From an uncultured Actinomycetota bacterium (GTDB taxonomy: Bacteria; Actinomycetota; Acidimicrobiia; Spongiisociales; UBA5794), in assembly GCA_963836085.1 (NCBI GenBank), contig CAWIHT010000014.1, positions 148,530-212,529 on the forward strand: a stretch of DNA of 64,000 nucleotides, in the 5' to 3' direction. Under the pieces are notes generated by a model. It worked only from the letters and a program-made list of their open reading frames with translations, had not been told where the DNA came from and did not search any database. Positions 3,592 to 56,299 of the stretch are shown one piece after another (position 1 is the stretch's first letter; every line of letters starts with the position of its first letter). The position numbers and the translations under genes were made by a program.

Positions 3592-4405
3592 TCGTTTCCG
3601 GTGCTTCCGTTCCTCGGGCAGCGCCGATCAACACGCCGATCAGGCCGGCGGCAGTGACGACGAAGCCGAGCACGATCAACCAGGCTCCGACGGCGGTCAG
3701 GGAACGCGAGAAGACGGCGTAGCCGTTCTCGACAAGAACGCGGCTGATCGGATCGTCGATGCGCGAGGGAAAGAGTGAACCTCCTGCAACACTCCAGAGC
3801 ACCACGCCACCACCGGCGATCAACACCGCCAGACCAACGATCACCGCAGCGAGAGAACGGCGCCCGGCCAGCATCACAACGGCGACCGCGAGGAACACGG
3901 CAACCGCAGCTGCAACCACCGACACCGCAGGTACCCAACCCGCCGTCCTCACGATCGCCGGCAACGCTTCCTCATCCAGGATGACGACCTCCCCAAACAC
4001 ATCCACCGGGATCCGCTCCGCAAGATTGGGAGAGATCCGTGCGATCGGCTCGACCAGAACGTCACGCACATCGCTCAGATCCGAGACGAACGGTCCTTCC
4101 GCTGCCGACATGACGTGCCGGTGGCCGGCGACGACGAGGTTGTCGATCGCCGGGTCGAATGCTCCCGAGTCCAGGATCACAACAATCGCCCGTTCCCCGG
4201 CACCGCGAACCAACGCCAGGAGCGGCACGGCATCGATCGCTTCATCCATCAATCGCTCCGCCAGCGCCTGCTGAGACGTGTCCATCTCGAGGACTTCGGT
4301 CGCGAGATCGAGAAACGCTGCTTCCTGCACGACGGCGCGATCCAGCCAGAACGCGATGGCGGCGACGAAGGTCAGAATCGAGATCAGTGCCCCGATTGCG
4401 ATCAC
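3587..4405 (-). CDS. Hypothetical membrane protein (N-terminal TM, ~150-aa extracytoplasmic region, 3 C-terminal TMs)
   Basis: Long ORF with hydrophobic segments. No recognisable family. Confidence 0.5.
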   Translation of the reverse strand: MIAIGALISILTFVAAIAFWLDRAVVQEAAFLDLATEVLEMDTSQQALAERLMDEAIDAVPLLALVRGAGERAIVVILDSGAFDPAIDNLVVAGHRHVMSAAEGPFVSDLSDVRDVLVEPIARISPNLAERIPVDVFGEVVILDEEALPAIVRTAGWVPAVSVVAAAVAVFLAVAVVMLAGRRSLAAVIVGLAVLIAGGGVVLWSVAGGSLFPSRIDDPISRVLVENGYAVFSRSLTAVGAWLIVLGFVVTAAGLIGVLIGAARGTEAPETS

Positions 4406-4566
4406 CGTGACGATGGAACGGATAGTTCACTCCTCAGATGCCACGCGAACCCTACAGATCGGTTCAGACAACGCTCCCAAAGGGAATCGGACTCGCGAAC
4501 CACGAAACGACTAGCGTTGGATCGACCGATCCTCGTGGATCGGTTCCTCTAGGGAAGGAGGCACCC

Positions 4567-23670: not shown

Positions 23671-24495
23671 CTACTTCGCTGCCGCGCCCGCGCTCGCTCT
23701 CGGCACCACGATCGGGCCCGTCTCGTGTTTCTGCTCTTCGTCGTACCACGAGAAGAACACCCATGCGATGGCGACCCAGAGCACCAGGCCACCGCCGATC
23801 TTCATGATGAGGCCGGCGATGATCTGGTCGGTCATCACGTCGATGCCCCAGAGCCTCGGGAACGTGGTGTAGATCTCGTAGAGCGGGGTCTCGCCGAGGG
23901 TCATGAACGATGCCGGGATGGTCGGAACCAGCGACTGGAGGAAGAGATACCCCATCTTGCCGAACGGGGCGAGCGTCTTCGTCTCCGGGATCGGATCCAT
24001 CACCGGCCACCACATCAGGACCGCCGAGATGAACAGCACGAGATGGGCAAAGAAGTGGAAGAAGTCGTTCGTCAGCATCAACTCGACCACCGAGGGGACG
24101 TGGATGAACGCAAGCCACACATTGAAGAACACCAGCGTGAACATCGGTCGAGTGATCACCTTCAACAGCGGGATGAATGGCTCGACGAGTGCGTGCATCA
24201 GCCAACCTGGCATGCCCCCGAGCAACAGCGGCGGTACGACCAGGGTGATCAGCATGTGCTCGGTCATGTGGAACAGGTAGAGGCGCTGTTCGCCGATGTC
24301 GTGCAGTGGCCAGGTCGAACTGATGAGGAGGAAGATGACCCCCGCGTAGTACATCACCCGCTGAGCCGTGGTGACCGGCGGCTTCCCTGGAGGGGCGTAT
24401 CGCCCGGCGAGCCTGCGGATCCCAAACTCGTAGATGAAGATCAGAGCAATGGCGACCCCGTACACGTCGAGGTGCGGGTGGAACGTGATGTCCAT
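23671..24495 (-). CDS. ctaG: Cytochrome c oxidase caa3-type assembly factor CtaG
   Basis: Polytopic protein with Caa3_CtaG-like sequence (HMTEHMLITLVVPPLLL). Last gene of the cta operon. Confidence 0.65.
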   Translation of the reverse strand: MDITFHPHLDVYGVAIALIFIYEFGIRRLAGRYAPPGKPPVTTAQRVMYYAGVIFLLISSTWPLHDIGEQRLYLFHMTEHMLITLVVPPLLLGGMPGWLMHALVEPFIPLLKVITRPMFTLVFFNVWLAFIHVPSVVELMLTNDFFHFFAHLVLFISAVLMWWPVMDPIPETKTLAPFGKMGYLFLQSLVPTIPASFMTLGETPLYEIYTTFPRLWGIDVMTDQIIAGLIMKIGGGLVLWVAIAWVFFSWYDEEQKHETGPIVVPRASAGAAAK

Positions 24496-24498
24496 GGG

Positions 24499-24786
24499 TC
24501 AGAGTGCCCGGAACACCGAGAGCATGACAATGAACAGGAGGATCGCTACGACCACAGCAATCCCGAACACGTAGCGGTATCCCTTGAGGTCGTACTTGAG
24601 GTGCATGAACACCGCGACGACCGTCACGAACTTTGCGGCGCCGAAGGCGATCAAGAGTGGGGCACGCACCGGGTCGAGGAACTCGACATACGGGATCGCA
24701 ATCTCGATTGCGGTCGCGACCGCGAGCGCTGCGGCTATCAACCAGTAGGTCTTCGGCGTCGGATGGGCGTGGGATGCGGTTGCCAT
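24499..24786 (-). CDS. ctaF: Cytochrome c oxidase subunit IV (prokaryotic CoxIV/CtaF)
   Basis: 95-aa, 3-TM protein tightly coupled downstream of ctaE. Confidence 0.65.
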   Translation of the reverse strand: MATASHAHPTPKTYWLIAAALAVATAIEIAIPYVEFLDPVRAPLLIAFGAAKFVTVVAVFMHLKYDLKGYRYVFGIAVVVAILLFIVMLSVFRAL

Positions 24787-24788
24787 GG

Positions 24789-25406
24789 TCAGATCTGCAG
24801 CAGGTAGACGATGGTGAAGATAACAATCCAGACGATGTCCACGAAGTGCCAGTACAGCGCTACCAGTTCGACGTTCATCCCGTGATCGGGTGACAGCCGG
24901 CTGCGGAGCGAGAACGCGACCAGCATGGCGATCATCAGCACACCACCGGCAACGTGGAGGCCGTGGAAGCCGGTCAGCATGTAGAACGACGATCCGAACG
25001 GGCTGGTACTGATCGTCAGCCCCTCATGCACGAACTCGGTGAACTCGAAGATCTGGCCGGCGAGGAACGCGAGACCGAGGAGCGCCGTTCCGACGAGCCA
25101 GATCCGCCCCTGCCGCTGATCGGACTTCTGGAACGCATTGTCCGCAAGCACCATCGTCAACGAACTCATCAGCAGGACGAACGAGGTGGCCGAGGTGAAC
25201 GGGATGTTGAAGATCTCAGCGCCCGGTCCTCCATTGGTGGTGTGCCGGTAGAGGAGGAACGTGGCGATCATCGCCCCAAAGAAGAAGACCTCAGACCCGA
25301 GGAACACCCACATCGCGGTCTTGCGTGTGCGGTGGATCGGATCGCCGTCTGCCTCGAAGTCGCTCTGACCGTCAACCTCGAAGACGCCATCGGTGGCCGT
25401 TGCCAT
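24789..25406 (-). CDS. ctaE: Cytochrome c oxidase subunit III
   Basis: COX3 family sequence. Start overlaps the ctaD stop. Confidence 0.85.
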   Translation of the reverse strand: MATATDGVFEVDGQSDFEADGDPIHRTRKTAMWVFLGSEVFFFGAMIATFLLYRHTTNGGPGAEIFNIPFTSATSFVLLMSSLTMVLADNAFQKSDQRQGRIWLVGTALLGLAFLAGQIFEFTEFVHEGLTISTSPFGSSFYMLTGFHGLHVAGGVLMIAMLVAFSLRSRLSPDHGMNVELVALYWHFVDIVWIVIFTIVYLLQI

Positions 25407-27286
25407 CAGTGCGCCTCCCTCGTAGCCGGTTCAGCGGCCCAACCAACGAGACCCCACAGCGTCACGACCGCGCCGACCGCGAGGACTCCGAACCCGATCG
25501 GGCCCGACGAAATGAACACGAGCCCGGCACCCAGGGTCGCGATTCCGGCGGAGGCAACGATCGGGTAGAACGACGGCGATGGCATGTGGATCCCGTGCTC
25601 TTCGACCACCACGTCCGGCTTGCCGGCCTGTTCCGGAGTGAGCTTGACCGAGCGGCCCTCTTCGTCAACACCGTACTTGCGGTACCAGAAGTCGTCCAGG
25701 TGGTGCACCACCTGGATCTCTTCGAAGTTGTAGACCGGCGGCGGTGAGGTCGTCGTCCATTCGAGGGTGCGGCCATCCCACGGGTCGTTGCCTGCCACTT
25801 TGCCGTTGCGGTAGCTGGCAATCAGGTTGTAGATGAAGAACAGGAATGACAGGGCGATCAGGAAGGCGCCGACCGTCGACATGAGATTCCAGACGTCCCA
25901 CCCCATCCCGTCGGCGTAGCGGTAGGTGCGGCGGGGCATGCCGTCGAGTCCGAGAATGTGCTGCGGAGCGAAGGTGAGGTTGAACCCGATGAACATGATC
26001 CAGAAGTTCCACTTCCCGATCGTCTCGCTCATCATCCGACCGGTCCACTTCGGGAACCAGTAGTACGCGCCAGCGACGTACCCGAACACGGCACCGCCGA
26101 AGAGCACGTAGTGGAAGTGCGCCACGACGTAGTAGCTGTCGTGTTGCTGCGTATTCGCAGGGACGACCGCGTGCGTGACACCGGAGATTCCCCCAATGAG
26201 GAACATCGCGATGAACCCGATGGTGAACAGCATCGGCGCGGAGAAGGTGAGACGTCCGCCCCACATGGTGCCGATCCAGTTGAAGATCTTCACACCCGTT
26301 GGTATCGCAATCAGCATGGTTGCAAGACCAAACCCTGCCTCGGCCACTGGGCCCATGCCGGCGGTGAACATGTGGTGAGCCCACACGCCGAAGCCGAGGA
26401 AGCCGATCGCGATCCCGGAGAACACGACGAACGAGTACCCGAACAGGGGCTTGCGGGAGAAGACCGGCAGGATCTCGGACACGATGCCGAACGCCGGCAG
26501 GATCAGCACGTAGACCTCAGGGTGCCCGAAGATCCAGAACAGATGTTGCCACAGCAGCGGATCGCCGGCCGCCTGCGCCTCGTAGAAGAGCCCGCCGAGG
26601 TTCCGGTCGATGAAGATCTGCCAGAGGCCGACGCCGATCACCGGGAGGCTGAAGATGAGCAGGAATGAGGACACGACGCTCATCCAAACAAAGACCGGCA
26701 TCCGCATGAGGGTCATCCCCGGGGCCCGCATCGTGAAGATGGTGGCGACGAAGTTGATCGATCCGGCAAGCGAAGCGAACCCGAGGAGCTGCGCCCCGAT
26801 CGAGTAGTAGTCCATCCGGACGTACTCCTGGATCTGCGTCGAGAGCGGGGCGTACCCAACCCATGCCCCGTCCGGCGAACCACCGAGGAAGAACGAAGAC
26901 GTCAAGAGAGCCACACTGAAGAGGAACAGCCAGAAGGCGAACGCGTTCAGCCGCGGGAAAGCGACGTCGCGCGCGCCGATCATCAGCGGGATGAAGTAGT
27001 TCTGGAAGGCAGCGGCGATCGGCATGATGACGGCGAACACCATCGTGAGCCCGTGCATCGTGAAGAGCTGGTTGTAGGCGTCCGCAGATACGAGCGTGCC
27101 GTTCGCGGTCGCCAGCTGCGTCCGGATCAGGAGTGCCTCGAGGCCGGCAACGATGAAGAAGACCAAAGACGAAACCGCATACATGATGCCGATCCGCTTG
27201 TGATCGACCGTCGTGATCCAACTCCACAGACCCTTCGTCGAGGGTGGTGTGTAGCCGAGGTCATCGGGGGTTGTGGTCAGCGCCAC
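25406..27286 (-). CDS. ctaD: Cytochrome c oxidase subunit I (with C-terminal extension)
   Basis: Unmistakable COX1 sequence (heme and CuB His ligands, GHPEVY). 626 aa. Confidence 0.9.
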   Translation of the reverse strand: MALTTTPDDLGYTPPSTKGLWSWITTVDHKRIGIMYAVSSLVFFIVAGLEALLIRTQLATANGTLVSADAYNQLFTMHGLTMVFAVIMPIAAAFQNYFIPLMIGARDVAFPRLNAFAFWLFLFSVALLTSSFFLGGSPDGAWVGYAPLSTQIQEYVRMDYYSIGAQLLGFASLAGSINFVATIFTMRAPGMTLMRMPVFVWMSVVSSFLLIFSLPVIGVGLWQIFIDRNLGGLFYEAQAAGDPLLWQHLFWIFGHPEVYVLILPAFGIVSEILPVFSRKPLFGYSFVVFSGIAIGFLGFGVWAHHMFTAGMGPVAEAGFGLATMLIAIPTGVKIFNWIGTMWGGRLTFSAPMLFTIGFIAMFLIGGISGVTHAVVPANTQQHDSYYVVAHFHYVLFGGAVFGYVAGAYYWFPKWTGRMMSETIGKWNFWIMFIGFNLTFAPQHILGLDGMPRRTYRYADGMGWDVWNLMSTVGAFLIALSFLFFIYNLIASYRNGKVAGNDPWDGRTLEWTTTSPPPVYNFEEIQVVHHLDDFWYRKYGVDEEGRSVKLTPEQAGKPDVVVEEHGIHMPSPSFYPIVASAGIATLGAGLVFISSGPIGFGVLAVGAVVTLWGLVGWAAEPATREAH

Positions 27287-27317
27287 GAGAGGTCTCCTTC
27301 AACGGTGGTGCAGGTGA

Positions 27318-28439
27318 TCACTTCCACGCCTCCAACAGAGCAACGAGTTCCTGTATCTGCTGCTCATCGAGCCCGTAGTCGGGCATGCCAAGGATCCGAC
27401 CGGCTTCGATGTCGTTCAACTCCGGCGTCATCGGTTTGATCGACGATGGGTCGTCGATCCAGGCGGCAAGGTGCTCTGCGGTGTTCTCTTCGAGCCCCGC
27501 AGCGATCGATGTGCGGCCTCCGAAGTGGGTGAGATCAGGGCCGAGAGCAGCGCCGACAACCTCTACCGTCCCGTCGCTCGCCGCCACCTTGGCCTGATGG
27601 CACGTCGTGCAGAACTGCGTGAAGGTCTCGTATCCGGCGGCTGCCTCTCCACTCGTCGGAATTGGAGCCGCCTCGAGTTGGCCGGCCGCCCACGCGTCGA
27701 AGTCAGCCTCGGAATCCACGAACACACGGAAGCGCATGTCGGCGTGTGCGAGCCCGCAGTACTCCGCACACTGACCGGGAACCATCTGCCCGGCGATGTC
27801 GGCGTCCGGCGTGATCTTCATGACGGTGTCCCGACCGGGAACGACATCGCGCTTCCCGGCGAGGCTTGGCACCCAGAAGCTGTGGATCACATCGACCGAT
27901 GTCATCGTCAGTTCGGACGTCTTGCCCGCGGGGATGTGCATTTCGTTTGCGGTCGTGAGCGGCCGCCCGTTCTCGTCAAGAATGTCCGGATACTGGAACT
28001 CCCACCACCACTGATGGCCGATCACGTCCACGCGCACGAAGTCACCTTCTGCCGCGCTTCGAAGGTCGAAAAGCGTGGTGAGGGTTGGAACAGCGATGAT
28101 CACAACGAGCACAACGGGGATGAGCGTCCAACCGATCTCCAGCTTGGTGTTCCCATGGATCTGCCTCGGTTCCTCCTCATTGCCCGGGCGCTTCCGGAAC
28201 CGGACAACGGCATAGGCCAGCGCCCCACCGACGACCACAAAGACAACGGTCCCGAGCACGAGGATGAAGTCCCAGAGCTGATCGATGGACTCGGCCTCGG
28301 TCGACCGCGGGTTCAGTGACGACTGGGGGAGGTTGCTCGAGCAGGACGCCAGCAGAAGCGCGCCGAACGCAACCGCAACCAGGGCGATTCGAAGCAGGAG
28401 GCGGCGGCGAGCGTCGTCGTTGCCAGCGGTTTTGTTCAC
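27318..28439 (-). CDS. ctaC: Cytochrome c oxidase subunit II with fused C-terminal cytochrome c domain (caa3-type)
   Basis: CuA motif CAEYCGLAHADM and heme-c motif CTTCH. Probable GTG start with lipoprotein signal RRRLLLRIALVAVAFGALLLASC, inside track ORF 28799. Confidence 0.85.
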   Translation of the reverse strand: MNKTAGNDDARRRLLLRIALVAVAFGALLLASCSSNLPQSSLNPRSTEAESIDQLWDFILVLGTVVFVVVGGALAYAVVRFRKRPGNEEEPRQIHGNTKLEIGWTLIPVVLVVIIAVPTLTTLFDLRSAAEGDFVRVDVIGHQWWWEFQYPDILDENGRPLTTANEMHIPAGKTSELTMTSVDVIHSFWVPSLAGKRDVVPGRDTVMKITPDADIAGQMVPGQCAEYCGLAHADMRFRVFVDSEADFDAWAAGQLEAAPIPTSGEAAAGYETFTQFCTTCHQAKVAASDGTVEVVGAALGPDLTHFGGRTSIAAGLEENTAEHLAAWIDDPSSIKPMTPELNDIEAGRILGMPDYGLDEQQIQELVALLEAWK

Positions 28440-28524
28440 GTAGTTCCCCAGGACGGCGACCGAAGTGGGCGGGATAGTAAGCGACGAAATTGTTTGCTGC
28501 AACGAGCTTTCTCGGAAATTGGAG

Positions 28525-29964
28525 CTAGGTCGCCGATTCGACGTCCGAAGGCGCGAATCTGGCCGCAAGCCAGGTAGTGAGCGGAACCGCCGCGACGAGG
28601 CCGATGCTCCCCACGAGAGTGCGCACGATCTCGACCGCGACGACCTCGCTGTTGGCGATCGTTCCGAGCGACTGACGGGCGAGGACGAAGAGCACCAGGA
28701 GCGGTAGCGACGCCCCCGCATAGGCCAGCAGTAGCGTGTTGACGATCGAAGCGATGTGATCGCGACCCACCCGCAATGCGCGGCGGAACAAGCCGGCACT
28801 CCCCAGCGAGGGATCGGTTGCCTTCAACTCCCATACCGTCGCGGCCTGGGTGATGGTCACGTCGTCGAGGGCACCAGCCGCTCCGAGGACGATCCCGGCG
28901 AGGAGCAATCCGGTGACGTCGATACCCTCGAAGAACGTCAGCAGCGATGTCTCCTCCGTGACGAATCCCGTGAACCGCGCCAGATCGACGACGATGGCGG
29001 AGAGTACGGCGGTCAGAACGAGCGCCGCGGTCATACCGGCCAGGGCGATCGTGGTCATCCGCCCGAATCCGTGGGCGAGATACATCGTGACAAACGCGAT
29101 GGCCGCCGAACCGACCACTGCAACCAGCACCGGACTTCGCCCATCGAGGATTGCCGGCAACACGAACGCCAGCAGGATGAGGACGCTCACTACGAGACCA
29201 ACCAGGGCGGTGGCACCACGCCAGCCTCCGAGGACGACGACGACGAGGGCGAACACGATGGCGACGGCCGCCAGCACGAGGCGGCGGTCGAAGTCGGCGA
29301 ACTGGTAGATCGACTGCGGGTCAACGAGCCGAACCGAAAGAACCTGCAGTTCGTCCTGGTCGTAGACGTAGTCGACCAGCACCGCATCCCCAACGGCGAC
29401 CGAGGCAGCGTCCTCGCCCCGGTACGCCTCGAACACTGCTGGTTGCTCGTTCCCGTCATCGTCGACGAGGAGCGAGATCGCGACACATTCGGTCTCTGGG
29501 TCGAACGAGCACGGTGCAGTGGCGACGGCGGTGACGGTCGCCGTGGGGGCGACGCGGGACAGCACCACCCGGTCACCCTCCGAGAACACCGGCGTTGTTG
29601 CTCCGGGGAGGAACTCTTGCGTGAACACGAAGCCATCCTCCGGACCGTCAGTGAGTTCGAATCTGACCACCGTGCAGGTTTGGGTCTCGATACCCGAACA
29701 AGGTGCCTCCGAGACACGCTGCACCGTTGCGTGGTGAAAGTCGGTCGGGACACCGATCGCCGCGAGGTCATCGGCTTGCTCCTGCGACGCCCCGGTCGGT
29801 CGCAGCAGGATCATCCCGAGGACGATGACGACGCCGAGAGCGACCCCGAATACGACGAATGGGTCGACCCGTCGGCGGTCGGTGGGGTCCGGCGAGTCGC
29901 TCTCATCGACATACGCTTGCCACTCGTCGGCCCGGTCAGAATCGAACAGTCCGTCTTCCGCCAT
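28525..29964 (-). CDS. YibE/F family polytopic membrane protein
   Basis: N-terminal TM, ~200-aa soluble region, then many TMs typical of YibE/F. Confidence 0.55.
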   Translation of the reverse strand: MAEDGLFDSDRADEWQAYVDESDSPDPTDRRRVDPFVVFGVALGVVIVLGMILLRPTGASQEQADDLAAIGVPTDFHHATVQRVSEAPCSGIETQTCTVVRFELTDGPEDGFVFTQEFLPGATTPVFSEGDRVVLSRVAPTATVTAVATAPCSFDPETECVAISLLVDDDGNEQPAVFEAYRGEDAASVAVGDAVLVDYVYDQDELQVLSVRLVDPQSIYQFADFDRRLVLAAVAIVFALVVVVLGGWRGATALVGLVVSVLILLAFVLPAILDGRSPVLVAVVGSAAIAFVTMYLAHGFGRMTTIALAGMTAALVLTAVLSAIVVDLARFTGFVTEETSLLTFFEGIDVTGLLLAGIVLGAAGALDDVTITQAATVWELKATDPSLGSAGLFRRALRVGRDHIASIVNTLLLAYAGASLPLLVLFVLARQSLGTIANSEVVAVEIVRTLVGSIGLVAAVPLTTWLAARFAPSDVESAT

Positions 29965-30742: not shown

Positions 30743-31264
30743 TCAAACCTCTTCCGCCCACATCGAATCCCACATCTCCCCGACTGATTCGAAGAGCCCA
30801 GCGAGCGCCCACACCAGGAGCCAGGCGAGGATGAGCAGGATGACCACCGTGAGCGCGGCGCGGAGGTATCCAAGCCAAGGATTGCCGGAGTCGTACAACG
30901 TCGAGATCCAGCCCTTCACACCCGTCGGCTCGGGTTCTGTCACCGGAACGGCACCGGTGACACGACTGGTGCCCATCTGGGTCGGCTGCGACGGGTCCTG
31001 CGTCGCGGCCCGGGGAGAATCGACGGGTGGCGGCGTCGCCGGCGGGAGGGGCTCTGCGCCGATCAACGCGAGGTCCGCCTCGTCGAGGCTCAGCACCGTC
31101 GCCAACTGGCCGATGACCCCCATCGCGGGCACCCCTTCGTCCCGCTCCCATCGCCGCACGGATGCCGTGGACCGTTCGACCGCCGTCGCGAGCTGTCCCA
31201 TCGACATCCCCCTCGCAAGGCGTGCCTGCCGGACGACTTGTCCGAAGGTTCTGGGATCGCTCAT
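30743..31264 (-). CDS. HTH (XRE-type) domain protein with C-terminal transmembrane segment (RodZ/anti-sigma-like architecture)
   Basis: VRQARLARGMSMGQLATAVERSTASVRRWER is an HTH. Pro-rich linker, then TM LTVVILLILAWLLVWALAGLF. Confidence 0.6.
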   Translation of the reverse strand: MSDPRTFGQVVRQARLARGMSMGQLATAVERSTASVRRWERDEGVPAMGVIGQLATVLSLDEADLALIGAEPLPPATPPPVDSPRAATQDPSQPTQMGTSRVTGAVPVTEPEPTGVKGWISTLYDSGNPWLGYLRAALTVVILLILAWLLVWALAGLFESVGEMWDSMWAEEV

Positions 31265-31353
31265 GGGGCCAGGATATCCGCACCGGGAAGTTCCCACGGC
31301 GTATGTGCAGCGATGGCTCACTATCGTCGGGGCGAGCGAGCGTGGAGGCACAC

Positions 31354-33138
31354 GTGGGAACGGACTTCCGGAATCTGGTCGAACTGTACGAGTCCAGCGT
31401 TGGACGGTTCACCGACAATCAACTGTTCGGAACGCGTCACACCGAGGGGTGGCGGTGGATCACGTACGGAGAGTTTGGCAAACAGGTCGATCACGCCCGC
31501 GGTGGACTCGCCGGACTCGGCATCAAGGCGGGCGACCGCGTCGCGGTGATCTCGGACAATCGGGTCGAATGGGCGATCGGGGCGTACGCGACCTACGGCT
31601 TGGGCGCGGCATGGGTGCCGATGTATGAGGCACAACTCGCCAAGGAATGGAAGTTCATCCTCGGAAACTCCGGTGCCAAGATCGCCATCGTCGGCGACGA
31701 CGGAATCAGGGCCCAACTCGACGATCTCCGCGATGATCTTCCCGAACTCGGTCAGATCGTCGTGATTCGCGGAGAGGCGGGTGGAGATTCGATCAGTTGG
31801 GCCGAGATGCAGGCGCGCGGAGCAGATAGCCCGGTTGACACCGTTGATCCGGCTTCCGAAGATCTCGCCTGCCTCATCTACACGTCGGGGACTACGGGTC
31901 AGCCGAAAGGCGTGATGCTCTCCCACGGCAATATCACCAGCAACGTCAACGTGTTCCCCGACATGTTCGACATCGGCCCCGACGACCGGACGGCCTCATT
32001 CCTCCCGTGGGCACACTCGTTCGGCCAGACAATCGACCTGCACTTCATGATCGGGGCGGGCGCCTCTGCCGGTCTCACCAGTGCCCAGACACTGATGGAC
32101 GATCTGGCGGATCTCAAGCCGACGATCCTCGTGTCGGTGCCTGCGGTCTACAACCGGTTGTACGACGCCCTGCAGAAGATGATGGCCGCCAAGGGCGGGG
32201 TCACGAAGAAGCTCTTCGATCGGGCGCTCGCCAATGAACAGAAACGGACCAGCCTGGCGGCCGAGGGCAAAACCACCCGGTGGGTGGAGATGCAGCACGA
32301 TATGTACGACAAGCTGGTCTTCTCCAAGGTCCGCAACGGATTCGGCGGACGGCTGAGATACTCGATCTCCGGCGGTGCGGCGATCTCCATCGAGGTCGCA
32401 GAGTTCATCTCGGCGCTCGGCATGACCGTCTACGAAGGCTACGGACTCACCGAAACCTCTCCGGTCGCAGCGGCGAACACGCCGTCGTACCGGAAGGTCG
32501 GATCCATCGGCAAGGAGATCCCCGGCGTCACGATCGACATTGACCGCGAGATGACCGGCGATCCGGAGATCGGCGAACTGATTATCCACGGCCCGAATGT
32601 GATGCTCGGCTATTACAACCTGCCGGAGGAGAACGAGAAGGCGCTCACCGCCGACCATGGCTTCCGCACCGGGGACCTGGGCTATCGCGACGACGATGGG
32701 TACTTGTTCATCCGGGGACGCATCAAGGAGCAGTACAAACTCGAGAACGGCAAGTATGTGGTGCCGTCACCCATCGAGGAGCAACTCCGACTGTCCGGGT
32801 ATGTCACGAACATCATGGTCTACGGCGAGCAGCGACCGTACAACGTGGCGGTCATCGTCCCGGACATGGATGCGCTCACGAAGTGGGCGGCCGACCACGG
32901 TCTCGGCGATCTCTCCAGCGAGGCGCTACTCGAAAGCGACACCGTCGCCGACCTGTACCAGCGCGAGATCGACCGTCTGTCCGGTTCGATCAAGGGATAC
33001 GAGCAGGTTCGCGGGTTCGTGCTCGAGGACGAGGAGTTCACCCCCGAAAACGGGATGCTCACCCCGAGCCTGAAGGTGAAACGCAAAGCCGTCCTCGACC
33101 GCTACGGCGACGACCTAGACAAGCTCTACGAGAAGTAG
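31354..33138 (+). CDS. fadD: Long-chain fatty-acid--CoA ligase (AMP-dependent synthetase)
   Basis: GTG start after GGAGG. AMP-binding motifs IYTSGTTGQPKGV, YGLTE, TGD, GRIKE. Confidence 0.85.
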   Translation: MGTDFRNLVELYESSVGRFTDNQLFGTRHTEGWRWITYGEFGKQVDHARGGLAGLGIKAGDRVAVISDNRVEWAIGAYATYGLGAAWVPMYEAQLAKEWKFILGNSGAKIAIVGDDGIRAQLDDLRDDLPELGQIVVIRGEAGGDSISWAEMQARGADSPVDTVDPASEDLACLIYTSGTTGQPKGVMLSHGNITSNVNVFPDMFDIGPDDRTASFLPWAHSFGQTIDLHFMIGAGASAGLTSAQTLMDDLADLKPTILVSVPAVYNRLYDALQKMMAAKGGVTKKLFDRALANEQKRTSLAAEGKTTRWVEMQHDMYDKLVFSKVRNGFGGRLRYSISGGAAISIEVAEFISALGMTVYEGYGLTETSPVAAANTPSYRKVGSIGKEIPGVTIDIDREMTGDPEIGELIIHGPNVMLGYYNLPEENEKALTADHGFRTGDLGYRDDDGYLFIRGRIKEQYKLENGKYVVPSPIEEQLRLSGYVTNIMVYGEQRPYNVAVIVPDMDALTKWAADHGLGDLSSEALLESDTVADLYQREIDRLSGSIKGYEQVRGFVLEDEEFTPENGMLTPSLKVKRKAVLDRYGDDLDKLYEK

Positions 33139-33183: not shown

Positions 33184-33265
33184 CGAGCACCGGCCGCTAG
33201 GCCGGAGCGCAGCGGAGGGGGCTCTGGGAGCCCGGATCTGAAGATGAGTTCTGCCGCGCCTTCTT

Positions 33266-33296
33266 GACTGGCGACCGGTGACTGGCGACTGGCGAC
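33266..33296. repeat. Imperfect tandem repeat (GACTGGCGA-like x3) just downstream of the ppk2 stop
   Basis: gactggcgaccggtgactggcgactggcgac. Confidence 0.4.
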
Positions 33297-34110: not shown

Positions 34111-34323
34111 CTAGCGCGGATCTCCGTACGGTCGCGATGCGATGACGAGGCGGATGGATCCACCCGTGACCATTGCGATGAGGCCAACCGATGCCGCCAG
34201 CTTGAGCCAGATCGCTCCGCCCGATCGCCACGTCAGCACCATGAACGCAAGACACATCACGCACAGGAAAGCGATCGCAAGGACAAGAACCACCCAGGTC
34301 GTCAGAGAACGTGGAGCGTCCAT
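34111..34323 (-). CDS. Small hypothetical two-TM protein
   Basis: 70-aa hydrophobic ORF. No family. Confidence 0.3.
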   Translation of the reverse strand: MDAPRSLTTWVVLVLAIAFLCVMCLAFMVLTWRSGGAIWLKLAASVGLIAMVTGGSIRLVIASRPYGDPR

Positions 34324-34354: not shown

Positions 34355-35092
34355 CTAGGGCAGCCAGGGATCAACCCGAATCGGGACACCGAGGCTCTTC
34401 GCCGCATCGTCGATCGAGATCCAGGTTTCGTCGGCGCACGATTCGCAGGAGGTCCACAGCTCGTAGGTGTGTCTCCCCATCGCACGACCGCTGACGAATC
34501 CGCGAACGCCCCGGCGAGCGCAGTGCATGCAGTAGTTGCGTACCGACACACCGAGCAGTTCCGCCCGCGCGACGCGGCGGCACCGCTCTTCGCTCACGCT
34601 CGGGGGCTGCCACGCAACGGCACACAAGACTGCCACGGGGAGGATCGTTGCATAGATCCCGCATGAGAGGTCCCTGTCGAGCTTCGCTCGCGAGTCCCAG
34701 ACGCGCAGGCCGCATTTGCAGTGCTGGAGGTGACCGGGTTCGAACGGGTCACCGCCCATGTGGCAGAACGCAGCGTCAGTGACCGACCAGAGATCAGCGG
34801 CGTAGTCGGAGTACAACGCAGCGGTGTGGACCCGACCATCGGTGGCGAGCCTCGCGCGCTTCCATCCGCGAGGACTCCCCGTGGGAATCGCATCCGGGTT
34901 TCCGTCGGGCCATGGAGGCGGTGCGCCGCCACGTCGAGGCGTAGGAGGCGACGTCACGCAAATCCGCCCATAGCGGACACGAACGCGTCTCGTCGGTACC
35001 TGACCTGGCCTCGTTGCATCGGTGCAGCGTATGTCATGTGACCACCGTTCCGCCAGGGACGAACGACCCGACACTCGCGCGGGCTTCGGCAT
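34355..35092 (-). CDS. Hypothetical Cys-rich (probable zinc-binding) protein; real start may be internal (~34759)
   Basis: C-terminal half has HCKCG...C...NYCMHCARRG...SCESCADETW. N-terminal 110 aa are low complexity. Confidence 0.35.
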   Translation of the reverse strand: MPKPARVSGRSSLAERWSHDIRCTDATRPGQVPTRRVRVRYGRICVTSPPTPRRGGAPPPWPDGNPDAIPTGSPRGWKRARLATDGRVHTAALYSDYAADLWSVTDAAFCHMGGDPFEPGHLQHCKCGLRVWDSRAKLDRDLSCGIYATILPVAVLCAVAWQPPSVSEERCRRVARAELLGVSVRNYCMHCARRGVRGFVSGRAMGRHTYELWTSCESCADETWISIDDAAKSLGVPIRVDPWLP

Positions 35093-35117: not shown

Positions 35118-35212
35118 TGGCGGAGGCGGACGGGAATCGAACCCGCCAGGGCACTCTCGCACCCTCATCGGTTTTGAAGACCGAGGGACCCACCAGGCGT
35201 CCGGACGCCTCC
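35118..35212 (-). tRNA. selC: tRNA-Sec (selenocysteine tRNA), anticodon UCA, 95 nt including CCA
   Basis: Reverse complement GGAGGCGTCCGGACGCCTGGTGGGTCCCTCGGTCTTCAAAACCGATGAGGGTGCGAGAGTGCCCTGGCGGGTTCGATTCCCGTCCGCCTCCGCCA. Anticodon loop is CUUCAAA with U33 and A37. Long variable arm GGGTGC-GAGA-GTGCCC. T-loop TTCGATT. Acceptor plus T stem is 13 bp. Terminal CCA encoded. Confidence 0.8.
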
Positions 35213-35247: not shown

Positions 35248-35760
35248 TCACCCACCGTCGGAATCGAGCCGTATCTCGAGGATGGCCGTCGTCCAGTACG
35301 CGCCGAGCTTATATCCGACTTCGTCGAGGGTGCCGACCAGCCGGTATCCCAACGACTCGTGGAGACCGATCGAAGCGTCATTCGGAAGTGTCACGACGGC
35401 ATAGGCGCGGTGGATGCCCTCTGACCGGACAGCGTCGAGCACGGTGGAGAGAAGTCGGCGCCCGATGCCGGCCGCCCGGTAGTCGGGGTCAATCACGACC
35501 GTCGTCTCCACCGAGGTCTGGTACGCCGCCTTGTCGCGGAACTCACTGCTGTAGGCCGTCCCGACGACATGCCCATCGACCTCGGCGACGAACACCCGGT
35601 ACGGGCCGGTATCGCTGTAGTGCGTCCACCACTCGTGCCGACGCTCCATATCCCAGGGTTCGAGGTCGAACGAGATGGCGGAACCAACGACGGTGTGCTC
35701 GTAGATCACGTTGATGCGGACAAGGTCGCTCGCGCGCGCCCGGCGAATGTCGACGTTCAT
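35248..35760 (-). CDS. GNAT family N-acetyltransferase (phosphinothricin acetyltransferase-like)
   Basis: GNAT motif A region VDPDYRAAGIGRRLL. Confidence 0.8.
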   Translation of the reverse strand: MNVDIRRARASDLVRINVIYEHTVVGSAISFDLEPWDMERRHEWWTHYSDTGPYRVFVAEVDGHVVGTAYSSEFRDKAAYQTSVETTVVIDPDYRAAGIGRRLLSTVLDAVRSEGIHRAYAVVTLPNDASIGLHESLGYRLVGTLDEVGYKLGAYWTTAILEIRLDSDGG

Positions 35761-35811
35761 GCTCCGATCGTAGTGAAGGTCCGGGTGCACGCCTCCCGGC
35801 CGTGCGCACGA

Positions 35812-36237
35812 CTATGTCTCGCCGTTGGCCAAGCACGAGGAGCAGAGTCCGCGATAGACAATGTGGGTGTTCTCGATGCGGCCGGCGTCGGTATCGAGCG
35901 AGAGACCGTCCGCGGAGAACGTACGTGGTACGTCCTGGATCGCGCCGCAGGCACGGCAGACGAAGTGGTCGTGACGCTCGTCTGCCCGTTCATAGCGAGC
36001 GGCGCCGGGTCCGGCAGACGCCACGGTCACCAAGCCCGATAGGGCGAAGTCATCGAGAACGTTGAACACCGACGCCCGGGCGACCGAGGCGCCGCGATCC
36101 CGGAGGCGTCGCACAATGTCATCGGCGGTCGGATGACCGTCGAGTTCGGCGAGCGTCTCGAGAACCGCGATACGAGCCTGCGTCGCTCTCAGACCCGCGT
36201 CCCTGATCTGGTCGGCTGCTTCGGACGGATGGTTCAC
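35812..36237 (-). CDS. fur: Fur family transcriptional regulator
   Basis: GLRATQARIAVLE HTH and C-terminal HxxCxxC / CSSC metal site. GTG start overlaps the dps stop by 4 nt. Confidence 0.8.
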   Translation of the reverse strand: MNHPSEAADQIRDAGLRATQARIAVLETLAELDGHPTADDIVRRLRDRGASVARASVFNVLDDFALSGLVTVASAGPGAARYERADERHDHFVCRACGAIQDVPRTFSADGLSLDTDAGRIENTHIVYRGLCSSCLANGET

Positions 36238-36698
36238 CGCAGGTGGGCGCGCAACATCCAGAGTTCTTCTTCGAGCCCTTCGATGATGGTTTGGAGGAGT
36301 CCGTCGGAGATCACGTCGAGATCCTCGACGATGGCTTGCTGCGCGCGGGCACGACGGGCAGTCGCTTCGACACGTTCGGCGACAGCACGGATTGCGTCTC
36401 CGTCTTGGAGCCACTCGAGCGGGAACGGGCCCATGTCGCCCTCTTCCACTACGTCCTCTGCACGGCCTCGCGGCAGAGCGCCGAGGGTGACGATGCGCTC
36501 TGCGACACTGTCGCTCCAGAGACGCCATTGGTCCACGAGCACGTCGAGGCGTTCATGTGCGGACTGGAACCGTTCACCGACGACGGTCCAGTGGGCCTGC
36601 TTGCCAATCAGGTGAAGGTCGATGAGATCAACCAGGGTCGGTTGGAGCGCTTCGGCGGTCTTCGATGCGGCATCTCCGGGAAGGACGGTCCAAGTCAT
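36234..36698 (-). CDS. dps: Dps family ferritin-like DNA-protection protein
   Basis: Dps ferroxidase-site motifs (HW..G..F...H..LDE...D..AERI). Confidence 0.8.
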   Translation of the reverse strand: MTWTVLPGDAASKTAEALQPTLVDLIDLHLIGKQAHWTVVGERFQSAHERLDVLVDQWRLWSDSVAERIVTLGALPRGRAEDVVEEGDMGPFPLEWLQDGDAIRAVAERVEATARRARAQQAIVEDLDVISDGLLQTIIEGLEEELWMLRAHLR

Positions 36699-50033: not shown

Positions 50034-50930
50034 TCATCCCAACACCAGCACATCAATCGCGATCGCCAGGAACACTCCGGCGAGGTATCCGTTCGTCGCG
50101 GTGAAGTAGCGCATCGCCATATCCGTGTTCGCTCGAAGGTGGAATGCTCCTGCAACGAGCCAGGCACCGAGCACGATGACGGCAGCAAGGTAGATCCATC
50201 CCACCCATGGAACGAGCAGCAGCGAGACGCCGACCGTCACCAGGCTGTAGAGAACGATGTGATCGACCGTCATGGCCGTCCCGACGACGCCGGGAAGCAT
50301 CGGCACACCGGCAGCCTGATAGTCCTCGTCGTAGCGCAGAGCCAACGCCCAGAAGTGCGGCGGAGTCCAGAAGAAGATGATGCCGAACAACACCCATGCC
50401 GGCACTGTGAGCGATCCGGTGACCGCCGCCCACCCGACGAGAGGCGGTAGTGCGCCCGCCGCTCCACCGATGACGATGTTCTGTGTCGACGTGCGCTTGA
50501 GGAAGAGTGTGTAGACGATGACGTAGAAGAGCAGCGCGATCGTCGACAGGGACGCGGCGAGCAGATTCGTCGTCACGAGCAGCCATACGAACCCGAGGAT
50601 GCCCAGGGCGATTCCGAACACCATGGCCGCTTGTTCGCCGACCCGGTGGGTAGGGATCGGGCGGCCGCGGGTTCTGCGCATGACCCGATCGATGTCGGAA
50701 TCCATCACCTGGTTGATGACGTTCGCTCCCGCGGCGGAGAGCGTCCCTCCGATCAGTGTGGCGATCGCGAGCCACCATCCGGGCCAGCCATCGGCCGCAA
50801 GCACCATCGCAGGCAGAGTCGTCGTGAGCAGGAGTTCGATGATGCGCGGCTTCGTCAGCTCCACGTAGGCGCGAATCGTGCCCGCGGCGCTCGGCCTGCG
50901 AGGGTCGGTGATGCGCACGGTCTGACTCAC
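50034..50930 (-). CDS. ctaB: Protoheme IX farnesyltransferase (heme O synthase)
   Basis: UbiA-family motifs NQVMDSDIDRVMRRTRGRPIP and YTLFLKR. GTG start overlaps the ctaA stop. Confidence 0.85.
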   Translation of the reverse strand: MSQTVRITDPRRPSAAGTIRAYVELTKPRIIELLLTTTLPAMVLAADGWPGWWLAIATLIGGTLSAAGANVINQVMDSDIDRVMRRTRGRPIPTHRVGEQAAMVFGIALGILGFVWLLVTTNLLAASLSTIALLFYVIVYTLFLKRTSTQNIVIGGAAGALPPLVGWAAVTGSLTVPAWVLFGIIFFWTPPHFWALALRYDEDYQAAGVPMLPGVVGTAMTVDHIVLYSLVTVGVSLLLVPWVGWIYLAAVIVLGAWLVAGAFHLRANTDMAMRYFTATNGYLAGVFLAIAIDVLVLG

Positions 50931-51925
50931 GATGCACGCTTCGCGGTCTGATCGGCCTGAACTCGATCTCCGAGCAGGGCAGCGGCAAAGATCACGTATG
51001 CAATCCACATGGCGTCGGCAATGGCGAGGTGGATGACCTGGGTCTCGAGCGGGGTCGCAAGGATCACGTTCACGAGTCCGGCGAAGAACTGGATCGCGAC
51101 CAGCCCCATGACGATCGCCGCGATGCGTTTCGTCCGATCAACTGCCTTGGCGGAGAGACGCATCACGAGATAGGCGACGCCGAAGCCGACGGCGATGGCC
51201 ACGACCGGGTGCAACACCCGGACCTGCACCAGCCACGGCGCGTCTGCTGCGAGTTCCTGTTGGACGCCGGAGAAGAAGCTGTCCACGGGGTAGAGCGTGT
51301 CGCTGAGGGCGTTGAGGGCCCCCATTGCGCCGACCAGCAGCAGACCGGCGGCTCCAACGCCAAGGCGTCGATCCAGTCCCGGTTCCCGTGGCGATGCCGG
51401 ACCCGGGTTACCCGACGCCCACCACGCCGTCAGGGTCGACGCGCCGAGCAACAGATAGGTGTTGGTGAGGTGAAGCGGCACCACGATCATGCGGGCGATG
51501 GACTCATCCTGGGCGACCCAGCCGAAGACCACCAGTCCGGCGCCGAGGAGCGACTCGACTCCCATCAGGATCAAGCCCGCTCCGGCGGCCCGACGGACGC
51601 GATGACCTTGGTCGTAGAGGCGACGGGCCAGGAGGTAGAGGGCGAGGACTCCGAGAATGGCGAGGGCGCTCGTGATCCGGTGAGTGAACTCGATCACGGT
51701 CTCGACGGCCGGGTTTGATGGGAAGATCCTGTCGGTGCACGCGGGCCAGGAAGCTCCGCAGCCGTCGCCGGACTCGGTGGCGCGCACGATCGCTCCCCCG
51801 AGAATCACGAAGACATTGAACGCGAGGACCGACCAAGCGAGAACTCGATAGCGATTCCGTCGTTGGATCGAGGAGGTTTCCACGACCCGCAGGGTACCGG
51901 CCTCTCGACCGACATCGCAGTCCAC
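50927..51925 (-). CDS. ctaA: Heme A synthase (CtaA/COX15); start uncertain (track ORF extends to 52153)
   Basis: TM1 plus loop Cys pair GDGCGASWPAC and His-rich TM helices. Upstream 75-90 codons are low complexity and would overlap the divergent neighbour. Confidence 0.7.
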   Translation of the reverse strand: MDCDVGREAGTLRVVETSSIQRRNRYRVLAWSVLAFNVFVILGGAIVRATESGDGCGASWPACTDRIFPSNPAVETVIEFTHRITSALAILGVLALYLLARRLYDQGHRVRRAAGAGLILMGVESLLGAGLVVFGWVAQDESIARMIVVPLHLTNTYLLLGASTLTAWWASGNPGPASPREPGLDRRLGVGAAGLLLVGAMGALNALSDTLYPVDSFFSGVQQELAADAPWLVQVRVLHPVVAIAVGFGVAYLVMRLSAKAVDRTKRIAAIVMGLVAIQFFAGLVNVILATPLETQVIHLAIADAMWIAYVIFAAALLGDRVQADQTAKRAS

Positions 51926-52121
51926 GACAACGTGAGTAGTGGCCGCGGTGGCGGGTATGCTTGCGGTATGAAGAAGCCACTGCTCGGACTCATCATCCTC
52001 GCCGTCATGGTTGCCCTCGGATTCAAGATCTACAAGGCGATGACGGTCGAAGTCCCGGTCGAGGATCAGGGCTGACAAGCCCCCGTTCGATCTCGCCGTT
52101 CGGTGCTTCGGCGCCGGGCGC

Positions 52122-52844
52122 TTGGTTTGCGCGCTCCACGGATTCACACTCACCGGCGCTCAATTCGAGTCGCTCGCTACCGACGGTCTCCGTATCTGCG
52201 CTGCCGATCTGCCGGGGCACGGAGACACGCACGGCTCCCCGGTAGATGTTCCTGCAACGGTTGCGGCCATTGCCGGTTGGCTCTCATCGTTCGGCCAACC
52301 GATGCCGCTTGTTGGCTACTCCCAGGGCGGTCGCATGGCACTGCTCACGGCACTGAAGCACCCGCACCTCGTCGAACGGCTGGTCCTGATATCTGCATCG
52401 CCGGGCATTGCCGGCTGCGAGGCCCGGGCACAGCGTCGAGACCGTGACGAGCGTCTCGCCGAGCACATCGAGACCGTCGGTGTCGACGCCTTCCTCGACG
52501 AGTGGCTCGCCGGGCCGATCGCCGGGACCTCCCACCTCGACGACGAGGCGCGGCGGCGAGACCGTGCCATCCGCTCGGTGAACACGACGGCCGGTCTGGC
52601 CGCAGCTCTGCGGGGGCTGGGCCAGGGTACGCAACCGTTCGTCGGAGACCGGATCGTCGATCTTCGCATCCCGCTCCTCACCATCTCAGGCAGCGACGAT
52701 GCCCCCTACACCCGACGTGCCCGAGAGATGGCGGACACCGCCCCTTCGGGATCTCATGTGTCGATCGACGGAGCCGGCCACAACGTCCTCCTGGATGCTC
52801 CCGATGCAGTGGTCGCAGCCCTCGCGGACTTCGGGATCGTGTAG
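52122..52844 (+). CDS. Alpha/beta hydrolase (MenH-like)
   Basis: LHGF..., GYSQGG nucleophile elbow, C-terminal His. Confidence 0.6.
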   Translation: MVCALHGFTLTGAQFESLATDGLRICAADLPGHGDTHGSPVDVPATVAAIAGWLSSFGQPMPLVGYSQGGRMALLTALKHPHLVERLVLISASPGIAGCEARAQRRDRDERLAEHIETVGVDAFLDEWLAGPIAGTSHLDDEARRRDRAIRSVNTTAGLAAALRGLGQGTQPFVGDRIVDLRIPLLTISGSDDAPYTRRAREMADTAPSGSHVSIDGAGHNVLLDAPDAVVAALADFGIV

Positions 52845-54752: not shown

Positions 54753-55208
54753 CTACTCAGCTACTCCCAGCGCGTCCACCGCGAACACGTACTCCGCCAC
54801 CGGCACTCCCCCGACCAGATGTTCGTCGATGATGCGGTCGATGACGTCGACCGTGACGGAGTGGTACCAGACGCCGTCTGGATAGACGACCCCGATCGGG
54901 CCGCGCTCGCACACACGGAAGCAGTCGACCTTGGAGCGGAGGACCACCCCCCCGGTGCCACCATCGTCCGGCGGCGGTTCGTCGAGATCGGCTCCGCGCC
55001 ACGGCGCGGGGGCCGAGGCGAGATCAAGATCCTTCAGCCGCCGCTTCAGGTGACGCCAGACCATCTGGCTCTCCTCTGCCGTCGAACAGCGCGGCGTCGA
55101 TTGGCTGGCGCACAGGAAGATGTGGCGGTCCAGAGATCCGATACCGATCGAGCGGGAAATGGCGTCGAGGCGCTGCTGACTGTTGTCGACCATGGTGAGA
55201 GTCTGCAC
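54753..55208 (-). CDS. Thioredoxin-like [2Fe-2S] ferredoxin domain protein
   Basis: Cys spacing HIFLC(x7)C ... C(x3)C. Divergent from selD with a 44-nt spacer. Confidence 0.5.
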
Positions 55209-55252: not shown

Positions 55253-56299
55253 ATGAACTTCATCCGTCTCACGTCGTACAGCCACGGATCCGGCTGAGCA
55301 TGCAAGCTCGGAGCTGACGAGCTGGCGCAGGTTCTGCGCCGTCTGCCTGGAAACGAGATCACCGAACACCCGGATCTCCTTGTCGGAATCGCGGGGTCGG
55401 ATGACGCCGCCGTCTACCGCATCTCCGACGACCTCGCACTCGTCCAAACCGTCGACTTCTTCACGCCGATTGTCGACGACCCTGCCGAGTGGGGCCGTAT
55501 CGCCGCCGCCAACGCGCTGTCCGATGTCTACGCGATGGGCGGCACACCGCTGACAGCACTCCAACTGCTGTCGTGGCCGCGAGACGAGCTGCCGTGGAGT
55601 GCTGCAGCCGACGTCATCGACGGCGCGGTGGAGGTATTGGCTGAGGCGCGATGCACCCTGGTTGGCGGTCACTCGATCGATGATCGGACGCCCAAGTTCG
55701 GGTTCGCCATCACCGGCACCGTCCACCCGGATCGCATGATCACGAACGACGCTGCCCGTGCCGGGGATGCGCTGGTCCTCACCAAGGCTCTCGGAACCGG
55801 ACTCATCTCAACCGCGATCAAGAGCGGCATTGCCACGGCGGGTTCGCAGGAAGCAGCGGTTGCCACCATGCGAAGGCTGAACGCATCAGCATCTCGCGCT
55901 GCCGTCGAATCCGGTGTGCGGGCCGGCACCGATGTCACCGGATTCGGTCTCCTCGGTCACCTCGTGGAGATGCTGCGGGCGAGCGACGTCACCGCCGTTC
56001 TCGATGCTTCGGCGATCCCGATCCTCGAGGGTGCACTCGACATCGCGGCCGACGGCACCGTGCCGGGAGGCACGAAACGCAACTTCCGTTCGGTCGAATC
56101 GGTGGTGGACTTCGGCGCACTGCCGCCAGAGATGCAGACGTTGCTTGCCGACGCGCAGACGAGCGGCGGACTGCTCCTCGCCGTGCCGGAAGCCGATCTT
56201 CCAGCACTCGTTGCCGGGATCACCGGTGGCGGGGATCTCGCTGCAGTCATCGGCCGGATCACACCGGCGGCCACCGATTCACTGGTCACGGTCCGCTAG
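55253..56299 (+). CDS. selD: Selenophosphate synthetase (selenide, water dikinase) with in-frame UGA selenocysteine codon at 55295-55297
   Basis: N-terminus MNFIRLTSYSHGSG-U-ACKLGADEL aligns to E. coli SelD IRLTQYSHGAGCGCK with UGA at the Cys17 position. Downstream DDAAVY, FFTPIVDDP, ANALSDVYAMGG. C-terminal ORF 55535-56299 is in the same frame (AIR-synthase-like fold, TDVTGFGLLGH). Confidence 0.85.
55304..55339 (+). promoter_or_regulatory. Candidate SECIS-like hairpins immediately 3' of the selD UGA
   Basis: AGCUC-GGAGCUGAC-GAGCU starts 8 nt after UGA, and GCGCAG-GUU-CUGCGC starts 28 nt after UGA. The second has an apical GGUUC loop. Confidence 0.4.

Follow-up and report, generated by a model that had tools for sequence, protein, structure and literature searches.

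A selenocysteine tRNA gene of actinobacterial type and a selD gene with an in-frame UGA in an uncultured, probably aerobic actinobacterium

Described systems and the selC gene of the window

Among the described systems close to the present one are the selenocysteine tRNAs (tRNA-Sec) of mycobacteria, all of which represent a variant with a 7-bp acceptor stem and a 6-bp T stem (RNA Biol. 2026, PMC13449736). The gene for this tRNA, selC, is found in 42% of 244 mycobacterial genomes (PMC13449736), a figure with which the earlier note's description of the selenocysteine (Sec) trait as patchy in Actinobacteria is in good agreement. Other tRNAs of unusual geometry, namely the allo-tRNAs (PMC5389517) and the 12-bp tRNA-Sec variants (PMC5330540), possess acceptor and T branches of 12 pairs, arranged as 8/4, 9/3 or 7/5. 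With respect to the proteins, no bacterial selenoproteins are more widespread than FdhA and the selenophosphate synthetase SelD; one or both of them occurred in every Sec-decoding organism of the survey in question, which recorded Sec-containing SelD in the Actinobacteria (Rubrobacter xylanophilus) as well as in many Deltaproteobacteria and Clostridia (PMC1794560).

The DNA analyzed here, referred to as the window, is a 64-kb stretch taken as a whole. The sole tRNA gene that ARAGORN reports in it, on the minus strand at 35118-35212, is a tRNA-SeC with the anticodon tca. The Rfam tRNA-Sec family, RF01852, matches positions 35122-35212 of the same strand with 72.9 bits (E 5e-13; the gathering score is 47), covering model positions 1-91 and thus its full length, and it is the single Rfam match in the window at the gathering threshold. 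At its minimum free energy (MFE) of -48.1 kcal/mol the RNA adopts a cloverleaf, with z = -2.7 relative to dinucleotide shuffles. The gene and its elements are as follows, the latter in tRNA numbering from the 5' end:

35118..35212, minus strand: selC, tRNA-Sec gene of 95 nt, with UCA anticodon, G73 and encoded CCA (ARAGORN, Rfam RF01852, MFE fold, covariation)
1-7/85-91: acceptor stem, followed by U8
11-17/22-27: D stem of 6 bp with a bulged G15, GGAC(G)CC/GGGUCC, and a 4-nt D loop, UGGU
29-33/41-45: anticodon stem of 5 bp, with the 7-nt loop CUUCAAA
48-54/59-65: variable arm, with a 7-bp stem and a GAGA loop
66-71/79-84: T stem of 6 bp

Canonical tRNAs stack an acceptor and T stem of 12 bp, and a long variable arm together with G73 provides identity elements for seryl-tRNA synthetase (SerRS). 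The tRNA of the window exhibits the combination by which tRNA-Sec is recognized: a D stem extended to 6 bp and closed by a loop of 4 nt, a 7-nt anticodon loop whose UCA pairs with UGA, a coaxial acceptor and T-stem stack of 13 bp, and a long variable arm accompanied by the G73 discriminator. The minus-strand, 95-nt tRNA-Sec that the earlier note had read from the letters is thus borne out by ARAGORN at the same coordinates and by the RF01852 match; its CUUCAAA loop, GAGA-capped variable arm and encoded CCA are all legible in the sequence. The note would have been contradicted by a tRNA-Ser call or by the lack of a UCA cloverleaf, and both ARAGORN and Rfam return tRNA-Sec with UCA. The 13-bp stack that it had proposed is likewise present, and can now be refined to a 7/6 arrangement, or to 8/5 with a U8·C84 mismatch. 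On this evidence, and on that of the relatives and of the selD gene treated below, it is very likely that selC encodes a functional bacterial tRNA-Sec that belongs structurally to the actinobacterial type.

Acceptor and T-stem geometry among relatives and look-alikes

In both the MFE and the RNAalifold structures, the acceptor and T stems of selC comprise 7 + 6 Watson-Crick or GU pairs, which add up to 13, while the classical bacterial 8/5 register yields 12 pairs and the U8·C84 mismatch. The same arrangement was followed in at least 120 relatives' loci, drawn from a genome collection by means of a loose pattern of D loop, anticodon loop and T loop, such that the sample is biased by the pattern; ARAGORN called tRNA-SeC in 118 of these at least 120 loci, among which the window's own genome does not figure. 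Within this pattern-biased sample, a U8 opposite a C, combined with a G just 5' of the T stem, appears in 62 of 119 tRNAs (that of the window included), of which three are register-shifted ARAGORN calls from Verrucomicrobiota-type loci, leaving about 59 after their exclusion. The U8/G66/C84 signature is present in all Actinomycetota loci sampled, from Streptomyces, Mycobacterium, Kocuria, Pseudonocardia and Actinomadura to many Acidimicrobiia, and was also seen in some Phycisphaerae; nearly all tRNAs of this type share the T stem GCGGG/CCCGU. The acceptor/T signature, described not long ago for the tRNA-Sec of mycobacteria, hence reaches across the Actinomycetota loci sampled, and the selC of the window is a member of this actinobacterial tRNA-Sec type, with a 7-bp acceptor and a 6-bp T stem (or 8/5 with U8·C84). 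Its nearest tRNA-Sec among the loci listed, at 91.6% identity, belongs to an Acidimicrobiia metagenome-assembled genome (MAG; locus L025).

RNAalifold applied to 59 distinct sequences of the signature type returned the same cloverleaf as that of the window's selC. Compensatory changes were found in acceptor pairs 3-6, in the D, anticodon and T stems and in all seven pairs of the variable arm; the D-stem bulge recurs in 56 of the 59 relatives and G73 in 58. Positions U8, G66 and C84 are invariant among the 59 aligned tRNAs, U8 and C84 being also a criterion by which the set was selected, and covariation is therefore neutral between the 7/6 arrangement and 8/5 with a U·C mismatch. We tentatively entertain, as a possibility held at somewhat under even chances, that 7/6 is the true fold, with U8 unpaired, like that of ordinary tRNAs, and G66-C84 closing the T stem, and that it defines a class which extends beyond the mycobacteria across the Actinomycetota and part of the Planctomycetota. 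Such a fold would imply that RNase P cleaves at the canonical position, and that SelA and SelB recognize the total length of the stack rather than an 8-bp acceptor stem.

The geometry also bears on a different identity for this tRNA. Searches for tRNA-Sec have brought up look-alikes, and the allo-tRNAs, which came from the same kind of search, resemble the present tRNA in their long variable arm and in an acceptor/T geometry other than 7/5 (PMC5389517); moreover, the 7/6 reading gives a 7-pair acceptor stem, the canonical length. The gene might accordingly specify an allo-tRNA, a Cys-charged tRNA of the selC* type or a UGA-suppressor tRNA-Ser delivered by EF-Tu. Yet the stack of the window's tRNA has 13 pairs, as 7/6 or 8/5, whereas allo-tRNAs are defined by 12, as 8/4 or 9/3 (PMC5389517), and the 12-bp variants likewise have 12, which speaks against an allo-tRNA or a 12-bp tRNA-Sec-like species. 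The anticodon is UCA, the discriminator is G73, and the T stem opens with G·U and C-G as in the tRNA-Sec of E. coli. The same architecture is further encountered in loci where the tRNA adjoins selA, selB or selD, and in mycobacteria which possess selA, selB and selD together with a formate dehydrogenase selenoprotein (PMC13449736). An identity other than tRNA-Sec is, in consequence, extremely unlikely.

The selD gene, its in-frame UGA and the hairpin that follows

A Sec-decoding trait comprises selA, selB, selC and selD together with one or more selenoprotein genes; of these, beside selC, the window contains selD and, in the same gene, an in-frame UGA followed by a SECIS-like hairpin:

55253..56299, plus strand: selD, selenophosphate synthetase (selenide, water dikinase), 348 codons, predicted selenoprotein
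55295..55297, plus strand: TGA, codon 15 of selD, at the catalytic Cys/Sec position in the motif SHGSG-U-ACK
55323..55341, plus strand: SECIS-like hairpin with an 8-bp stem, UGGCGCAG/CUGCGCCG (fold and covariation)
55331-55333, plus strand: apical loop GUU of the hairpin

With the ATG at 55253 as start codon, the gene is translated in frame as MNFIRLTSYSHGSG*ACKLG...; it reads MNFIRLTSYSHGSG-TGA-ACKLGADELAQVL... and continues to a stop at 56299. When U is replaced by C, the 348-residue protein scores 397 bits with the selD equivalog TIGR00476 (cutoff 125) and 364 bits with NF002098 (cutoff 299), and the catalytic Cys/Sec residue in the Gly-x-Gly-[C/U]-x-x-Lys motif corresponds to the TGA. The start at 55253 agrees with the conserved N-terminus of the relatives, M[DE]FIRLT. 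In a metagenome scan, 16 of 18 selD relatives carried TGA at the catalytic codon, including all six with 80-93% identity, and the peptide upstream of it, M[DE]FIRLT[SA]YSHGSG, is kept in the TGA-bearing relatives. Since the peptide is conserved on both sides of the TGA, read-through is favored over a downstream start.

The Sec form of this lineage's selD is known only from metagenomic relatives. Among the relatives' loci, the named Actinomycetota have TGC or TGT at the catalytic codon (GGGCACK), with the exception of L044, and TGA occupies this codon in Verrucomicrobiota, Gemmatimonadota, Planctomycetota and Syntrophomonadaceae. In L044 (Actinomadura terrae, 3711-4619), where selD adjoins selC, the catalytic Cys/Sec codon is GGC (Gly), and Ser-Thr replaces the Cys-Lys of the relatives (GGGGASTIPPGE); this selD may be inactivated, or the sequence may contain a local error.

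The public gene calls reflect the unusual codon. The selD of the window appears in them, on the ENA contig, as a protein of 254 aa that starts at 55535 and comprises the AIRS/AIRS_C domains. SelD homologues of 65-94% identity (P0001-P0120) were nearly all called at 318-326 aa, without the N-terminus, and full-length calls (343-350 aa) occur only at about 60% identity. The Sec-encoding TGA, at which gene finders stop, is the cause of the truncation; the present reading thus corrects a systematic annotation error that shortens selD here and in the metagenomic relatives of this genome. The piece in front of the TGA is only 14 codons long, for which reason selD was also missed by our ORF map, with its GC3/length filter, and by a screen for in-frame TGA codons; the latter screen, which itself missed selD, yielded no second such gene in the window. 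Three other TGA candidates in the window proved to be adjacent genes or shadow ORFs and not selenoprotein genes. An ORF of 151 aa, divergent from selD (54753-55208, minus strand), contains several Cys residues and has a high GC3; it has no match in Pfam.

The hairpin begins 26 nt after the UGA. When 22 distinct Sec-type selD genes are aligned with codons as anchors, 88% of the cells in the hairpin columns are paired, compared to 30-58% in a control in which the partners were slid by 1-3 columns. The covariation score in these genes is 0.406, compared to 0.185 ± 0.025 for shuffled alignments, none of which (0/500) reached the observed value, and in five of the eight pairs both partners change. 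In 21 Cys-type selD genes the corresponding columns are 51% paired, no better than the shuffled or slid controls. Since the hairpin covaries in Sec-type and not in Cys-type selD, it is tied to the UGA. Its stability alone is unexceptional for a GC-rich sequence (z = -1.4), so that it is covariation, and not stability, which supports it. Its position and the G at the start of its apical loop would fit the consensus for bacterial SECIS elements; the SECIS region of selD matched no model in Rfam. The first hairpin after the UGA (AGCUCG...CGAGCU) was also considered as a candidate, and was dropped since other Sec-type selD genes do not conserve it.

The earlier note had taken the tRNA as the mark of a selenocysteine user, a claim which gains support from the TGA in selD, the conserved peptide that flanks it and the covarying SECIS-like hairpin; the organism very probably uses selenocysteine. 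With the tRNA gene, its fold, selD, the in-frame TGA and the conserved hairpin at hand, the remaining steps may be proposed from sequence, structure and the established pathway. Seryl-tRNA synthetase would charge the selC tRNA with serine, SelA would turn the Ser-tRNA into Sec-tRNA using selenophosphate from SelD, and SelB would bring the Sec-tRNA to UGA codons that are trailed by a SECIS hairpin. Codon 15 of selD would be one UGA read in this manner, and SelD, as its codon 15 is UGA, would then be a selenoprotein which needs the selC tRNA for its own synthesis.

The genes for two of these components were absent from the DNA inspected. Neither selA nor selB was found in the window or in its 10-kb flanks on the 270-kb ENA contig (~84 kb), by Pfam scans or by tblastn, in which verified SelA and SelB proteins of Actinobacteria were the queries, nor were they present in gene tables with precomputed Pfam assignments. 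Of the 138 relatives' loci searched, by contrast, 30 contained selA and 29 contained selB in the stretch that was fetched; the sel-positive loci were mostly 8-kb stretches centered on selC, with a few metagenome loci centered on selD. The completeness of the machinery, the presence of both genes elsewhere in the genome and the expression of the system are what we infer.

The same absence would suit a relic selC, left in a genome that has lost selA and selB, where the tRNA no longer becomes Sec-tRNA and selD has turned into a pseudogene; in Actinobacteria, indeed, orphan selD genes as well as losses of the Sec trait have been recorded (PMC5029168, Table 1). A relic is difficult to reconcile with a tRNA in which no stem is disrupted and all of the relatives' invariant positions are kept, with a selD frame that is intact on either side of the TGA, and with the conservation of TGA, upstream peptide and hairpin down to 80% protein identity, a pattern that points to purifying selection on a read-through gene. 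The dispersal of sel genes in many bacteria argues in the same direction. We thus consider a relic to be very unlikely; judged from these genomic patterns, the sel genes of this lineage are probably dispersed, their loss being much less likely.

Surroundings, host lineage and comparison with known systems

A GNAT acetyltransferase gene precedes selC on the same strand, with 35 nt between the two. Upstream of selC, genes for a ferritin-like protein, a Fur-family protein and the GNAT protein are arranged head to tail (35248-36698, minus strand), and selC could be co-transcribed with them. A consensus scan, uninformative at 64% G+C, detected neither a sigma-70-like promoter nor an intrinsic terminator near selC, and no promoter consensus between the GNAT gene and selC. 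Downstream of selC there are two ORFs and then PPK2. These two ORFs (34355-34957, minus strand, 200 aa, and 34111-34323, minus strand, 70 aa) had no match in Pfam even at E 0.1; their GC3 is lower than that of neighboring genes, and they are candidate genes only. Further along, in the intergenic region between an acyl-CoA ligase-like gene and PPK2, a 14-nt unit, TGACTGGCGACCGG, stands in tandem (33265-33292). As regards synteny around selC in other Actinomycetota, which is weak, a homologue of the AMP-binding ligase (26-31% identity) adjoins selC in L007, L020, L079 and L091, and a CBS-domain gene (51% identity; L025 2130-2552) adjoins it in the Acidimicrobiia MAG with the closest listed tRNA.

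The selC gene of E. coli is a known site of island integration. The selC of the window might, by analogy, matter mainly as such a site, with a mobile element inserted at its 3' end and the downstream ORFs as its cargo, and two ORFs without a Pfam family do in fact follow directly upon the 3' end of the tRNA. The window, however, contains no second copy of the 27-nt tRNA 3' end, with up to three mismatches allowed; no direct repeat or repeat family involves the tRNA within ±5 kb, an integrase or recombinase domain is absent from all gene tables, and base composition is flat over the region. A selC-associated genomic island was accordingly rejected, as an integrase gene and a directly repeated tRNA 3' end are both lacking, and in this respect the locus, with no sign of an island at selC, differs from that of E. 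coli. A significance mainly as an integration site is extremely unlikely.

The designation of the host as actinobacterial in the earlier note finds support in the homologues of COX1, in the closest listed tRNA-Sec and in the acceptor/T signature. Among the best 120 homologues of COX1, all eight that carry an organism label are from Actinomycetota/Actinobacteria/Acidimicrobiia, with 65-71% identity, and the best matches, at 87-93% identity, are metagenomic proteins. The marker proteins and the type of tRNA place the lineage in the Actinomycetota, probably in the Acidimicrobiia. The window also includes a complete cluster for a caa3-type cytochrome c oxidase (23671-28799 and 50927-52159, both on the minus strand), with subunits II (fused to a cytochrome c domain), I, III and IV and CtaG, with CtaA nearby and CtaB in the gene table. 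Such an oxidase operon, with its assembly factors, suggests that the organism is probably aerobic. The selC locus marks this uncultured and probably aerobic lineage of Actinomycetota as a probable user of selenocysteine.

Two public assemblies contain the same DNA. The window is 99.97-99.99% identical to a 69-kb contig, JBAVXZ010000117.1, of NCBI GCA_049698555.1. It also matches the 270-kb contig_54239 of ENA ERZ25039603, which carries frameshifts and differs from the window by 18 mismatches and three gap openings in 20.6 kb. On contig_54239 (L122 2268-4053), two calls make up what in the window is one AMP-binding (acyl-CoA ligase-like) gene at 31162-33138, and other genes are split as well; the split genes and the gaps suggest uncorrected indel errors in that assembly. 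The same proteins also recur in the runs SRR28011612, SRR21856590 and SRR21856588.

When placed beside described systems, the locus is of a kind that is already known, since its type of tRNA has been published (PMC13449736) and Sec-containing SelD is known in Actinobacteria (PMC1794560), and nothing here alters what is known of selenocysteine decoding. The tRNA resembles the mycobacterial tRNA-Sec in its length of ~95 nt, in its 7 + 6 pairs which sum to 13, in its six-pair D stem and long variable arm, and in the variation of the D stem and of the acceptor-D junction (PMC13449736). Together with the tRNA of Mycobacterium asiaticum (L084), it has GGAGGCGU.../...CCGCCUCC-G-CCA and the T arm GGCGGG/CCCGUC, yet the overall identity of the two is only ~80%. 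The hosts differ as well, the published variant having been described in Mycobacterium (PMC13449736), whereas that of the window is an uncultured actinobacterium, probably of the Acidimicrobiia. In M. asiaticum, selC is flanked by selD in its Cys form, selA and selB; in the window, selC stands alone, and a Sec-form selD is found 20 kb away.

The selC of E. coli (NC_000913.3, 3836222-3836316) can be aligned end to end with that of the window, both being 95 nt long, and blastn of the window's tRNA against E. coli genomes gave no match, as the sequences are too diverged. The CUUCAAA loop, the 4-nt D loop, the long variable arm, G73 and the encoded CCA are common to both, and both T stems begin with G·U followed by C-G. 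The two differ as follows: the eighth acceptor pair is Watson-Crick in E. coli (8/5), where the window has U8·C84; at 66/84 a G faces a G in E. coli, where the window offers a possible G66-C84 pair; and the D stem of E. coli is without the bulge formed in the window by G15. The selD gene, for its part, resembles those of Sec-SelD selenoproteins, in which UGA in the N-terminal Gly-x-Gly-[Sec/Cys]-x-x-Lys motif is followed by a SECIS hairpin within the coding region (PMC1794560), and its Sec form distinguishes it from the Cys form of the named Actinomycetota sampled, among which L044 has Gly.
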